Position numbers and translations under genes: made by a program. A DNA stretch of 64,000 nucleotides. It comes from Motilibacteraceae bacterium (lineage in GTDB: Bacteria; Actinomycetota; Actinomycetes; Motilibacterales; Motilibacteraceae). The stretch spans positions 8,052 to 72,051 of the forward strand of contig JBQCIO010000106.1 of assembly GCA_051953655.1 (NCBI GenBank). The letters run 5' to 3'. Shown here piece after piece: positions 10,092-27,406 of this stretch. The notes beneath the pieces were generated by a model. The model saw only the letters and a list, made by a program, of their open reading frames with translations. It was not told the origin of the DNA and made no database searches. Each line of letters begins with the position of its first letter. The first letter of the stretch is position 1.

Positions 10092-10169
10092 TCGCGTCTG
10101 TCCTTTCCGGACCGGATCGAGTGAGCGCCACGGACCCGGTCCTTGCCCAGTCGCAGTGCGACTGACCGA

Positions 10170-10260
10170 GGCAGCTGGGCCGGCCGCTCCAGGTGGAGCG
10201 CCCCCCTGGCTTTGCGGCCCCACCTCGCGGTGGGTGTGCCGTTTCTGGCCGTGGAGCTCG
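10170..10260 (-). ncRNA. candidate c-di-GMP-I (GEMM-I, type 2) riboswitch aptamer in the pilA 5' leader
   Basis: The minus-strand reading is CACGGCCAGAAAC-GGCACACC-CACC-GCGA-GGUG-GGGCCGCAAAGCC-AGGGGGGCGCUCC-ACCU-GGAGCGGCCGGCCC. Hairpin 1 (CCCACC/GGUGGG) has a GNRA (GCGA) loop. It is flanked 5' by GGCACACC and 3' by CCGCAAAGCC. These align with GGCAAACC...GAAA...GGGACGCAAAGCC of the V. cholerae Vc2 aptamer as I recall it. A second imperfect hairpin follows immediately. This is a visual alignment only; no covariance model was run. Confidence 0.4.
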
Positions 10261-24050: not shown

Positions 24051-24532
24051 GAGCCGGCCCCGTTCTGCGCGGCGGCGTGGGCCCGGGCGGCCTCGGCGGC
24101 GCTGCGGGCGGCCGCCCGCTCGGCGGCGCGGCGGGCCCGCCGCTCGGCGCGGATGCGCGCGCCGGCGGTGCTCTCGACCTTGGCGGTGCGCCGCTGGGCG
24201 ATCGCCCGCTGCACCCCGTAGGAGAAGGCGGAGACCTTGATCGCCGGACCACCCAGCCCGCTGGTGACCAGGCCGGTGAGCCCGGAGACGTTGGAGCTCA
24301 TGTCGTGCACGTCGGAGGCGATGCCCTCGGTCTGGGCCAGCGAGGCGTTGACGCTGCGCATGGCCGCGGTGGCCTCCTGCAGCGTGGGCAGCGTCTTCTC
24401 GGTGAGCTCCTCGAGCGAGCGCTGGGCCTGGGCGATGGTGCGCGTGAGGCGCAGCAGCGGCAGCGCCAGCAGCCCCACGAGCACGACGAAGGCGAGGGCC
24501 GCGATGAGCCCCGCCACCTCTCCTGCCGACAT
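24047..24532 (-). CDS. DUF948-like membrane-anchored coiled-coil protein
   Basis: Trimmed from 24047-25072 to the ATG at 24532. It reads [54 protein letters not shown] and has an Arg/Ala-rich tail. Confidence 0.65.
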
Positions 24533-24593
24533 GGGGCTTGACCCTACCGCCCGGGGCGTGGGCGGGCTGAGGGGGAAAGGGGCGGGGGCGCCT

Positions 24594-24650
24594 CGAGTGG
24601 AAGGTTGTTGCGGGACACGCTGGCGTGTCGTGACATCGCCGTTCCACTCG
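24594..24650. repeat. 57-bp palindromic repeat, copy A (degenerate)
   Basis: CGAGTGGAAGGTTGTTGCGGGACACGCTGGCGTGTCGTGACATCGCCGTTCCACTCG. The outer (GAGTGGAA/TTCCACTC) and inner (GACACGC/GCGTGTC) arms are intact and the middle arms have decayed. It ends 5 nt from the DUF559 gene stop. Confidence 0.8.
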
Positions 24651-24654
24651 TGGG

Positions 24655-25617
24655 TCACGCGGCCGAGGGGTCCCGCCAGCTCCAGCGGCCGCGCGGGCGG
24701 CTCGCAGCCTCGGCCCAGGCCGCCTTGAGCCGGGTCACCGTCCGCAGCCGATGGGCCAGGTCGAGCCCCGTGGCGCGGACGACGACCAGACCGGCGCGTT
24801 CCAGCCCTTCCTCGCGGCCGTTGTCCGCAGTGTGGCGCTCGGCCGTCCGGTGGTCTGAGCCGTCGTACTCGCCGACGAGCCCCACCTCGGGATCGAGCAG
24901 GTCGGCCAGCGCGAGCAGGTGGCCTCGCCCGTTGCGCACCTCGACATTGACCTGCGGCGCGGGGAGCTTGGCGTCGCATCGCCACAGCACCCGGAGCCGG
25001 CTCTCCCCGCGCGACCGAGTGCGCACATCGACGAGCGCGACCGCTCGCAGGACCAGAGGGACGCCTCGCCACCGTGGCCGCTGGCGTGCGTACTCCGCCA
25101 CTTCGCCGGGACTGACCCCCACATCGCGGCAGACCGCATCGAGGTCAGCGACTGCGTCGGCCAGCGACGGAGCCAGCCGGGCGACGTCGAAAGCCGTCCG
25201 AACCGGGCTGGTGATCAGCACGCCGTCGACGGTGACCACGTCGTCCGGCAGCAGGCGGCTGCGGAAGGGGCACAGCCCGGCACGACGGACGATCCGAGCG
25301 GCGGGCTCGAGGCAGACCAGGACCGGGTCACCCGGCCCACCACCACGCCGGCCGTCCAGCTCTCGCGTGCCGAGCAGCCAGGCCGCCGCCCACCCGCCGA
25401 TCGCCGTCCCGGGTACAAGCGCCGCAGCGGCCTCGAGCAGGCGCAGGTGCGGGTGGGTTGGGTCCTGACCTTCGGGGCTGTGCACCCCCCGGAACGGGGA
25501 GCGCCAGAGCGGGCCCTCGAGGTCGGTGCGGGTGAAACCCTCGGCAGTCGCTTGCTGCCGGCTCCGCGGCCGCGCGGCTGGGAGGAGCGGGAGCTGCTGT
25601 GGGGACGGAGTCCGCAT
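24655..25617 (-). CDS. DUF559 / Vsr-fold endonuclease-domain protein
   Basis: Trimmed from 24655-25941 to the ATG at 25617, because the upstream part of the track ORF runs through two palindromic repeats. The C-terminal region SRGESRLRVLWRCDAKLPAPQVNVEVRNGRGHLLALADLLDPEVGLVGEYDGSDHR...DNGREEGLERAGLVVVRATGLDL matches the DUF559 pattern as I recall it. Confidence 0.7.
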   Translation of the reverse strand: MRTPSPQQLPLLPAARPRSRQQATAEGFTRTDLEGPLWRSPFRGVHSPEGQDPTHPHLRLLEAAAALVPGTAIGGWAAAWLLGTRELDGRRGGGPGDPVLVCLEPAARIVRRAGLCPFRSRLLPDDVVTVDGVLITSPVRTAFDVARLAPSLADAVADLDAVCRDVGVSPGEVAEYARQRPRWRGVPLVLRAVALVDVRTRSRGESRLRVLWRCDAKLPAPQVNVEVRNGRGHLLALADLLDPEVGLVGEYDGSDHRTAERHTADNGREEGLERAGLVVVRATGLDLAHRLRTVTRLKAAWAEAASRPRGRWSWRDPSAA

Positions 25618-25732
25618 GAGGCCGACACTGAGCCGCCGCTGACGGACATGCTGATCTTGAAAAGCAGGCTGTTGACGGTGACGACGTGGCCCGGCCGGGT
25701 GTGGACGGTGACCGTCAGTACGGACTTCGACC

Positions 25733-25789
25733 CGAGTGGAGACCTGTTGCACGCCACGCCGCGCGTGTCGCGCGACGACCTTCCACTCG
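25733..25789. repeat. 57-bp palindromic repeat, copy B
   Basis: CGAGTGGAGACCTGTTGCACGCCACGCCGCGCGTGTCGCGCGACGACCTTCCACTCG. It has the same length and orientation as copies A and C, and starts 116 nt upstream of the DUF559 start. Confidence 0.8.
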
Positions 25790-25895
25790 AGGCGGGGCGG
25801 AGGTGAAGGGGGCAGCAGGAGCCTGGTGGCGCCCACCTCCCCCGTCACCAGCGCCTTTGACCTTCCCCAGCTCCTCGCCACCTGCCGAGGGCCCG

Positions 25896-25952
25896 CGAGT
25901 GGAGACTTGTTGTTCGACACGCCGAGCGTGTCGGACAACAAGCCTCCACTCG
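25896..25952. repeat. 57-bp palindromic repeat, copy C (best-preserved hairpin)
   Basis: CGAGTGGAGACTTGTTGTTCGACACGCCGAGCGTGTCGGACAACAAGCCTCCACTCG. It has three nested arm pairs: GAGTGGAG/CTCCACTC, TTGTTGT/ACAACAA and GACACGC/GCGTGTC. It ends 12 nt before the rarA stop. Confidence 0.85.
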
Positions 25953-25963
25953 AACCGCCCCCC

Positions 25964-27406
25964 TCAGCTCCCCCGCACCACCGCCCGCAACCGGGCCACG
26001 CGCTCGGCGAGCACGCGCTCGGCGCCGTGGTCGGTGGGGGCGTAGTAGTCGGTGCCGTGGACGGCGTCGGGGGCGTACTGCTGGGCGACGACGCCGTGGG
26101 GGGCGTCGTGGGCGTAGCGGTAGCCCTTGCCGTGCTCGAGCTTCTGCGCCCCGGAGTAGTGCGCGTCGCGCAGGTGCGGGGGCACCGGTCCGGCCAGGCC
26201 GCGGCGGACGTCGGCCAGGGCGGCGTCGATGGCGAGGTAGGCGGCGTTGGACTTGGGCGCGAGGGCCAGGTGGATGGTGGCCTGGGCCAGGGTGATCCGG
26301 GCCTCCGGGAAGCCGATCATCTGCACCGCCTGGGCGGCGGCCACCGCCACCGGCAGCGCGGTCGGGTCGGCCAGGCCGATGTCCTCGCTGGCCGAGATCA
26401 TGAGCCGGCGGGCGATGAACCGCGGGTCCTCCCCCGCCTCCACCATCCGGGCCAGGTAGTGCAGCGCGGCGTCGACGTCGGAGCCGCGGACGGACTTGAT
26501 GAAGGCGCTGGCGACGTCGTAGTGCTGGTCGCCGGTCTTGTCATAGCGCACCGCGGCCCGGTCGACCGCGAGCTCCAGCGTCTCGACGTCGAGGACCGGC
26601 AGGCCCGCCTCGATCGCCGCCCCGGCGCCGGCCTCCAGCGCGGTGAGCGCGCGCCGCGCGTCGCCCCCGGCGATCCGCAGCAGGTGGTCCTCCGCCTCCG
26701 GCGCGAGCTCCACCGCCCCGCCGAGCCCGCGCTCGTCGGCGACCGCGCGGCGCACCAGCACGCGCAGGTCGTCGTCGGTGAGCGGCTCGAGGGTGAGCAG
26801 GAGGGAGCGGGACAGCAGCGGCGAGATGACGCTGAAGTACGGGTTCTCGGTGGTGGCCGCCACCAGCGTGACCCACCGGTTCTCCACGCCCGGCAGCAGC
26901 GCGTCCTGCTGGCTCTTGGAGAAGCGGTGCACCTCGTCGACGAACAGCACCGTCTCCGGACCGCCTGCGCCGATGGTGCGCCGCGCGTCCTCGATGACCG
27001 AGCGCACGTCCTTCACCCCGGCCGTCACCGCCGACAGCTCGACGAAGCGGCGACCGGTGGAGGTGCTGACCAGGTAGGCGAGGGTCGTCTTGCCGGTGCC
27101 CGGCGGCCCCCACAGCACCACGCTCGCCGGGGCGGCCGGCCCGGCGTCGGCGGGGGCGACCAGCCGGCGCAGCGGGGAGCCGGGGCGCAACAGGTGCTGC
27201 TGCCCGACCACCTCGTCCACCGCGCGCGGGCGCATCCGCACCGGCAGCGGCGGACGGCCCGCGCCGGCCCCTCCCGACGTCGACGCCGTCGCCTCGGTGA
27301 ACAGGTCCTCGCCCACGGGCTGGACCCTACGTCGCCGCGCCCCGCGCACCGGCACCCCGCGGGGCGGACCGGACGAACCGCCCCTAGGGTCGGAGCCGTG
27401 AGCCAC
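25964..27406 (-). CDS. rarA: replication-associated recombination protein A (MgsA/RarA AAA+ ATPase)
   Basis: It contains [16 protein letters not shown], Walker [14 protein letters not shown], Walker [12 protein letters not shown], and the C-terminal MgsA domain [26 protein letters not shown]...YRYAHD. The start is uncertain: GTG 27406 would overlap the divergent gene, and GTG 27325 (VQPVGEDLF) is an alternative. Confidence 0.9.

Follow-up and report, generated by a model that had tools for sequence, protein, structure and literature searches.

The window analyzed here comprises 64,000 nucleotides of a Motilibacteraceae bacterium (assembly GCA_051953655.1, contig JBQCIO010000106.1, positions 8,052 to 72,051) and contains three copies of a 57-bp palindrome around a gene for a protein with a nuclease domain. 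This gene, the palindromes, and the dispersed repeat family to which they belong are the subject of this report. All genes of the locus lie on the minus strand, in the order rarA (27406-25964), palindrome copy C (25896-25952), copy B (25733-25789), an open reading frame (ORF) of 320 amino acids (25617-24655), copy A (24594-24650), DUF948, DUF6167 and alaS. Copy C is located 12 nt past the rarA stop codon (25964-25966), copy B 115 nt upstream of the ORF start, and copy A 4 nt after the ORF stop codon (24655-24657). The first-pass annotation had placed one copy at the 3' end of the gene and two in its 5' region up to the rarA stop, and this geometry was borne out.

Direct reading of the sequence, a pattern search and a covariance model all support the same three copies, each of 57 bp. 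Exactly three matches to the pattern CGAGTGGA-N41-TCCACTCG, with no mismatch in the terminal 8-mers, are present in the window, versus 0.04 expected by chance, and three were reached in none of 100 shuffles. A covariance model of the family, built from 105 members and run on the window with filters off, detected only copies A, B and C (55-69 bits), with a runner-up at 13 bits. Copy C is the best preserved (69 bits). It has a 26-bp stem with a 3-nt loop, and its predicted DNA fold (-28.4 kcal/mol, z -9.9, 26 pairs) agrees with the near-perfect hairpin proposed earlier. Copy A (56.6 bits; -14.1 kcal/mol, z -3.1) and copy B (55.5 bits; -17.5 kcal/mol, z -2.6) fold by their outer and inner arms only. 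The loss of middle-arm pairing had been noted for A, and the middle arm of B is decayed as well. Copy C behaves as a solitary-type copy. The earlier description of the three copies as lying in the same orientation holds to the extent that model scores favor the plus strand by 3-6 bits, but a palindrome has only a weak orientation (B and C are 81% identical directly and 73% inverted).

An origin of copy C by segmental duplication of the rarA end together with a hairpin was considered and rejected, as the upstream similarity was reached by 185 of 500 shuffles. A GC-rich inverted repeat (GGAGGTG...CACCTCC) lies between B and C at 25793-25858, and its fold is no better than that of shuffled sequences (z -0.55).

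The product of the ORF (24655-25617, minus strand) consists of a short module of helix and strand at the N-terminus, an AbiEi-like domain in the middle and, at the C-terminus, a DUF559/Vsr-type PD-(D/E)XK nuclease domain. The nuclease motifs S202-x2-E205, D239 and E250-Y-D252-G-x2-H256 are intact, and the protein keeps all columns that are invariant (S202, E205, R209, D239, E250, G253) or nearly invariant (Y251, D252, H256) in the family. The gene had been annotated as DUF559-like. Pfam does not make this call for the window protein, where it reports only AbiEi_1 with a score (18 bits) below the cut-off, and PADLOC reports AbiEi (E-value 4e-6). At the family level the assignment stands, since DUF559 is found in 26 of 41 homologs (MTES_1575 in 13, AbiEi_1 in 10) and the family profile matches PDB entry 3hrl ('endonuclease-like protein', E-value 5.9e-6) as well as PvuRts1I. 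The flanked gene matched AbiEi_1, DUF559 and MTES_1575 only, with no match to Y1_Tnp. The family is large, with 836 clusters of 50% identity at an E-value threshold of 1e-30 and more than 8,000 at 1e-10.

The AlphaFold (AF2) model of the window protein is confident, with a pLDDT of 93.5. A Foldseek search of the PDB gave no significant match for the whole protein. The top whole-chain matches, which were not significant, were large-subunit proteins of the Toxoplasma gondii mitoribosome, which we take to be RAP-type RNA-binding proteins. The best domain-sized match was the catalytic domain of I-Bth0305I (3r3p; TM-score 0.72 over the target, E-value 1.8, not significant). Vsr, DUF559, 3hrl and 3r3p belong to one PD-(D/E)XK clade (PMC3424549), and I-Bth0305I, a characterized relative of the nuclease domain, binds as a homodimer and covers about 60 bp of DNA in footprints, with a pseudopalindrome at the center (PMC3239194).

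Between copy B and the ORF start lies a conserved block, CACCGTCAACAGCCTGCTTTTCAAGATCAGCATG on the gene strand (25647-25683, minus strand), with about 25 of 30 positions identical to those in a metagenome-assembled genome (MAG) of Marmoricola, where the spacer around the block does not align. Judging from this conservation, the block may serve the nuclease gene as a promoter or operator. A sigma-70 consensus or other classical promoter was not found at the nuclease locus. A 19-nt motif related to the block (GCAGGCTGTTGACGGTGAC) recurs at 25218, 25664 and 25694. The nuclease ORF has a GC content of 0.85 at third (GC3) and 0.82 at first (GC1) codon positions, compared with a GC3 of 0.97-0.99 in the flanking genes, and a long antisense ORF (24919-25806, plus strand) that scores almost as well could mislead gene callers.

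The hairpin repeat family

One genome per species was scanned with the pattern CGAGTGGA-N13-15-CACGC-N21-23-TCCACTCG, which fixes the outer arms and CACGC and leaves the right inner arm and the middle arms free. Matches were found in at least 115 blocks of 8 kb, about 100 of them with true copies. Among the matches listed, true copies occur in Cellulomonas (C. pakistanensis, C. sp. ACRRI, C. hominis, C. endometrii and several MAGs), Actinotalea, Cellulosimicrobium, and MAGs labelled Jiangellales, Motilibacteraceae, Kineosporiaceae and Frankiales. The few matches from outside the Actinobacteria have no internal palindrome and were discarded as chance matches. At least 24 copy-holding blocks come from C. 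pakistanensis, at least 14 from C. sp. ACRRI, at least 16 from MAG SMAG_U11696 and at least 17 from Motilibacteraceae bin705.

The repeats are a dispersed family resembling repetitive extragenic palindromic (REP) elements or miniature inverted-repeat transposable elements (MITEs), and they span several actinobacterial orders. A family of this kind had been suggested from the window alone, and the many dispersed extragenic copies agree with the suggestion. The repeat is found in other genomes, and the restriction to one lineage that had been part of the suggestion does not hold. Within the window, the copies are not uniformly spread over intergenic regions. None was found among 2.9 million viral contigs. 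Rfam has no family for the repeat and gave only spurious microRNA-hairpin matches (16-28 bits versus thresholds of 51-105). The hairpin family seems to be undescribed, as no description was found in the literature on DUF559, REP elements in Actinobacteria, Cellulomonas palindromes or the arm sequences.

The repeat unit of 56-57 bp can be written (T)CGAGTGGA–N11-12–GACACGC–loop–GCGTGTC–N11-12–TCCACTCG(A). Constant outer arms enclose middle arms of 10-12 bp that are genome-specific and compensated on both sides (for example AGATCCGGCC, AGGTCTGGCC, GCGTTCTGCC, CAGTTTTTCGAG and TTGTTGCGC), followed by the constant inner arms GACACGC/GCGTGTC and a loop of 3-5 nt. Over the 27-pair stem, 90.6% of the cells are paired, versus 79.3% in shuffles and 28-45% in slid controls, and 344 cells show a double change, versus 132 in shuffles; the observed values were reached in none of 500 shuffles. 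In each half, about 20-21 bp, or roughly two helical turns, separate the fixed motifs, which places them on one face of the helix. The total length holds at 56-57 bp while the spacing at the center differs by 2-5 nt. T precedes the unit in 51 and A follows it in 55 of 104 copies, in host genomes of about 72% GC; the flanking sequence is rich in C to the left and in G to the right.

A target-site duplication was not found in the 104 copies (3 direct 3-mer matches versus 0.9 expected, 1 direct 4-mer match versus 0.4). MITEs in the strict sense, as derivatives of DDE transposons, were rejected on this ground. Readings as dif or attC sites were rejected because core sites and recombinases are missing; by inspection, the integron attC core sites (RYYYAAC/GTTRRRY) are absent from the three window copies, and there is no integrase among the neighboring genes.

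Most copies of the family are solitary. These lie between convergent genes in 37 cases, between tandem genes in 31 and between divergent genes in 4, at a median distance of 27 nt from the adjacent stop codon. Thirteen overlap a called ORF, with some of these calls spurious. Genes that are bracketed by pairs of solitary copies (L059, L095, L119, L120) are ordinary. The first-pass annotation had also considered a structured RNA, acting as stabilizer or terminator, and here the results speak against it. No terminator-like site with a T-run was detected in 24400-26100, and G·U pairs were equally frequent in the sense (29) and antisense (31) directions of 37 copies in tandem context, so there is nothing to indicate RNA-level selection on the hairpins. 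Together with the lack of an Rfam family, the missing T-tail and the lack of strand asymmetry argue for a role at the DNA rather than the RNA level.

Association of the nuclease gene with the repeats

The association was found from the repeat side and from the gene side. A tblastn search with the window protein against the listed blocks identified five homologs (L041, L044, L050, L092 and L107), all adjoining copies. The additional diverged copies that the covariance model detected in these five blocks all adjoin the homologs, so that the homologs in all five are flanked on both sides; outside these blocks, the model found a single further diverged copy (L120). Roughly 95 other listed blocks have copies but no homolog within the block. 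From the gene side, flanking copies were found at L126 (53 and 56 bits), L134 (53 and 62 bits), L128 (22 and 33 bits), L132 (20 and 42 bits), L130 (one copy at 32 bits plus weak matches), L214 and L215. A canonical DUF559 gene from Pseudonocardia, a distant homolog, has no hairpins at its locus.

In a metagenome sample, a tighter homolog alignment identified 79 loci encoding relatives of the protein, and for 47 of them both flanks could be inspected. Copies stand on both sides of the gene in 12-13 of the 47, on a single side in 4 and on neither side in about 31. Over the 264 kb of the metagenome loci, there were almost no covariance-model matches away from the gene.

Flanked modules occur in at least 10 unrelated contexts, namely between rarA and DUF948, BrkB and sdhB, ppk and an acetyltransferase gene, TusA and aat, folE and folP, or MscS and a globin gene, and next to a NUDIX gene, galK, an SbcC-like gene or a gene for a LuxR-type regulator. 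The upstream copy typically lies 110-180 nt before the gene start and the downstream copy within about 100 nt of the stop codon. The link between the repeats and a gene with a Vsr-fold nuclease domain, raised as one of several possibilities from the window sequence, is thus reproduced in two search directions. The bracketing of a lone nuclease gene in so many contexts suggests a selfish nuclease with its target sites, comparable to the REP elements and their REP-associated tyrosine transposases (RAYTs), with a different enzyme.

Several individual loci deserve mention. At L186 (1-1005), a single hairpin copy (483-539) separates two tandem paralogs of the nuclease gene. Hairpins that appeared to lie inside the gene at L186 and L179 were explained by tandem paralogs or an over-extended match and are not insertions. 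At L175 (2822-4060), the module is directly beside the SbcC-like gene; SbcCD cuts DNA hairpins. At L136 (1288-2484) and L159 (1750-2953), it is wedged between folE and folP, which normally form a folate operon. On the metagenome contig CAEZXR010000056.1 (L191), a homolog with 36% identity (about 327-1277) lies between two copies of an unrelated palindrome, 36-38 nt long (GTGCAGGGATACCCGGTCGACCGGGTATCCC..., at 167-204 and 1388-1423). Based on this locus, other nuclease subfamilies may have cognate repeats of their own.

The BrkB-sdhB locus is common to six of the first flanked cases (L041, L050, L092, L107, L130, L132) and is also used in C. pakistanensis (L214) and Actinotalea fermentans (L215). 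The C. pakistanensis genome, which has the most solitary copies among the matches listed, carries two pristine copies around the gene at this locus. A third copy is present there in some genomes, as in the window (L092, 2235-2295; L041, 2727-2782). In MAG SMAG_U11696, the third copy is of a second subfamily (ACGTTGTGAC), and two subfamilies therefore coexist in one genome.

The module of the window is shared with the Marmoricola MAG (L125), in which RarA is 96.6%, AlaS 86% and the nuclease 70% identical. The orthologous interval there has no copy C and retains both gene-flanking hairpins, with an outer arm that is changed and compensated (AGAGTG(C/T)GAC in the ortholog of copy A). In L134 (2841-3906), a hairpin-gene-hairpin module occupies the same DUF948/DUF6167/alaS locus, with the gene inverted relative to these neighbors, an arrangement that either an inversion between the two palindromes or another insertion at this position could have produced. 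A solitary copy is found just past the rarA stop, in the same position as copy C, in a Jiangellales MAG of another order (L023, 1165-1221).

Among orthologs of the nuclease, dN/dS ranges from 0.24 to 0.6 (0.28 for the window protein and its Marmoricola ortholog), and the gene is therefore maintained but fast-evolving. It is a vertically inherited, long-term resident of fixed loci, under purifying selection. The module in the window is old, with copies A and B decayed and purifying selection still acting on the gene; copy C is better kept. The gene and its repeats had been interpreted as an insertion between conserved genes. Given the same module in at least 10 other contexts, this is supported, but the insertion is not a recent one, as vertical inheritance and the shared Marmoricola module indicate, and the interval is not identical in all relatives, with C missing in one and the gene inverted in another.

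Concerted evolution and a possible mechanism

Flank-to-flank BLAST comparisons showed that many solitary copies occupy orthologous intergenic sites in different Cellulomonas-like genomes, with one clear case of an empty site (L108, versus filled sites in L078 and L123). At orthologous sites, each genome nevertheless has its own middle-arm type. Core identity is 0.80 for 16 orthologous pairs, 0.78 for non-orthologous copies of different genomes and 0.85 for different sites within a genome, and 17 of 27 copies are closer to paralogs of their own genome than to the ortholog. Gene-flanking copies follow the same rule, the C. pakistanensis pair being of the AGATCYGG type of that genome (72 bits each). 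Since both orthologous sites and gene-flanking copies carry the type of their own genome, some process keeps rewriting copies in place. These sequence comparisons indicate concerted evolution of the copies within a genome.

A second pattern concerns the two halves of the gene-flanking palindromes. In the window, the left half of copy A (plus strand) and the right, gene-distal half of copy B (25763-25789) show 91% complementarity across 32 nt, 5 of them flanking nucleotides, and the flanking halves give 18 of 21 cross-matches (A-left with B-right) versus 15 of 21 self-matches. Such hybrid halves, with more cross-matches than self-matches, were also found in L128 and L050. If the gene had been copied into a solitary site, the outer halves of the resulting flanking palindromes would match each other better than their own partners, as A-left and B-right do. 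The hybrid halves lend moderate support to their reading as a mark of module copying.

We propose that the palindromes may be DNA sites of the nuclease encoded between A and B, with cutting and recombinational repair spreading and homogenizing them, and give this proposal about an even chance of being right. The protein would bind each half-site, with its DNA-binding part on the outer arm and its nuclease domain near the inner arm and the center; this would resemble the homodimeric I-Bth0305I, whose footprint of about 60 bp is centered on a pseudopalindrome. A multidomain protein bound to each half, or to a hairpin stem with the same duplex sequence, would fit the spacing of the fixed motifs and the fixed total length. 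The nuclease would then cut near the center of the palindrome. Repair from a gene-bearing module could copy the gene into a solitary copy and leave hybrid flanking palindromes, and repair could likewise overwrite solitary copies with the current master sequence of the genome, which would be seen as concerted evolution.

Several points weigh against this proposal. About two-thirds of the gene-first homologs with both flanks available (the 31 of 47 mentioned above) have no detectable hairpin of the family. The catalytic residues are intact in 22 of 27 homologs without hairpins versus 8 of 9 with hairpins, so there is no correlation; because hairpin-less homologs keep these residues, the protein needs no flanking copies to stay under selection. 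In the sampled blocks of the copy-rich MAGs Motilibacteraceae bin705 and Jiangellales YX2bin44, no homolog was found. Hybrid halves are restricted to three independent loci, with self-complementary flanking copies in L044 and L145 and direct copies in L159. Part of the outer-arm invariance in the main alignment comes from the search pattern itself; copies found from the gene side vary (CGACTGGA, AGAGTGTGA, CGAGTGAC and AGAGTGTGAC), these variants being compensated on the opposite arm. Template switching at quasi-palindromes could, in place of selection, produce compensated middle arms and maintain perfect palindromy. The gene calls behind the contexts come from our own crude GC3-based gene caller. 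Binding, cleavage and the cut site on the palindrome are steps that we infer from sequence, and the mechanism leaves the arrival of solitary copies at new sites unexplained.

A rival explanation is transposition. In this case, the nuclease would be a domesticated 'transposase' that moves the 57-bp hairpins, probably as single strands, to new sites; the gene-flanking copies would be element ends, as in a REPtron, and gene conversion would have no special role. A repeat-flanked gene at one fixed locus per lineage, vertically inherited and under purifying selection, is also how RAYTs have been characterized. Likewise in line with transposition are the abundance of solitary copies in a genome and their genome-specific master sequence, the lack of target-site duplications, and the filled and empty states of one orthologous site (L078 and L123 versus L108). 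However, copies at orthologous sites with species-specific sequences fit conversion in place better than fresh insertion, and transposition does not predict hybrid halves. No nuclease of the Vsr/DUF559 clade is known to transpose DNA (TnsA is a distant PD-(D/E)XK protein), and we consider transposition an unlikely explanation.

It is also conceivable that the protein does not recognize the hairpins at all. The hairpins would be a host REP-like or terminator-like element spread by other means, and the nuclease an unrelated selfish or accessory gene that lands or survives in hairpin-bearing spots. The strong bias of solitary copies to gene 3' ends, the homologs without hairpins and the ordinary genes between other copy pairs are in line with this idea. 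It does not account well for both-sided flanking in at least 10 contexts, as two copies per locus would arise by chance with a frequency of about 1e-3 if, as we estimate, about 2-3% of gene ends carry a copy. Nor does it explain why nearly all model matches in gene-first loci adjoin the gene, or why the flanking copies at the ancient C. pakistanensis locus are pristine and of the genome's own type. Mere co-location therefore appears improbable to us. A regulatory or RNA role, with the palindromes as operators for AbiEi-like autoregulation, or as 3'-untranslated RNA hairpins (stabilizers or terminators) bound or processed by a RAP-like Vsr-fold domain, and with the solitary copies as a regulon, seems slightly less probable still. 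AbiEi antitoxins do autoregulate through inverted repeats, the copies lie past stop codons, and the best whole-protein fold matches were the mitoribosome proteins, which we take to be of the RAP type. Vsr-like RAP domains bind RNA (PMC11879112). Against this role stand the missing T-tail and the lack of G·U asymmetry, the conserved catalytic residues of the nuclease, the distance of 110-180 nt between the upstream copy and the gene start, where another conserved block lies closer to the gene, and the genome-specific homogenization of the middle arms, which would not be expected of a regulon.

More generally, lone AbiEi/DUF559 genes might form a new class of repeat-associated nucleases, the first non-HUH partners of REP-like palindromes, which would keep dispersed hairpins alive and uniform by cutting and copy-repair, in subfamilies with different cognate palindromes as hinted at by L191. 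We put this forward tentatively, and with less confidence than the proposal for the window itself. If the link is true, a second, unrelated enzyme class has evolved the REP/RAYT life-style, in high-GC Gram-positives, and the abundant orphan AbiEi/DUF559 genes of Actinobacteria gain a first testable function. It would also provide a natural system of dispersed short repeats that evolve in concert at fixed chromosomal sites, and the 57-bp site with its nuclease could be a long-site-specific cutter of practical interest.

Elsewhere in the window, a c-di-GMP-I riboswitch aptamer (RF01051) is present at 10167-10250 on the minus strand (42 bits versus a gathering score of 35), the sole Rfam match in the 64 kb.

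Comparison with known systems

AbiEi, the antitoxin of the type IV AbiE system, resembles the middle domain of the protein, which matches AbiEi models, and AbiEi binds inverted repeats. In contrast to AbiE, none of the loci examined has an AbiEii nucleotidyltransferase gene next to this one; the AbiEi-like part is fused to a nuclease domain, and the gene stands alone between housekeeping genes.

The EDxHD homing endonucleases, including I-Bth0305I, share the Vsr-type catalytic domain in a multidomain protein and a gene located within or between its presumed target, and the I-Bth0305I footprint of about 60 bp with its pseudopalindrome matches the size and symmetry of the 57-bp unit. Unlike the genes of homing endonucleases, the gene described here is not in an intron or intein but between two copies of the presumed target, and this target would be an intergenic palindrome present in many copies, whereas homing endonucleases have a unique site in a conserved gene. 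The protein is AbiEi-like in its N-terminal part, and the fold match to I-Bth0305I is not significant for the whole protein.

MITEs, REP-targeting insertion sequences (IS1397, IS110 family) and remnants resembling solo long terminal repeats also combine small non-coding palindromes with a gene-carrying version, and the outer halves of the flanking copies resemble a split target in three loci. These elements differ from the present one, which has no target-site duplication and no DDE or serine/tyrosine recombinase, and in which whole palindromes rather than half-sites flank the gene.

The closest known system is REP/RAYT (REPtron, REPIN), which shares the architecture but not the enzyme class or the sequence tag. 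REP-like repeats are known mainly from Proteobacteria, and the RAYT tyrosine transposase is, to our knowledge, the one protein partner established for them. Common to both systems are short GC-rich palindromes in tens per genome, mostly extragenic at gene 3' ends and without target duplication, a repeat population with genome-specific master sequences and one resident, vertically inherited gene flanked by repeat copies. The 3'-end bias of solitary copies is likewise a feature of REP elements. The flanked gene here, however, encodes an AbiEi-like protein with a DUF559/Vsr PD-(D/E)XK domain and not an HUH/Y1 (IS200/IS605-like) transposase, and the unit starts with (T)CGAGTGGA and ends with TCCACTCG(A), without the GTAG or CGTC tags by which REP super-families are defined (PMC3733652). 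It also forms one long 26-bp hairpin, in contrast to the 20-40-nt REP or REP doublet, and its copies persist at orthologous sites and are homogenized in place.

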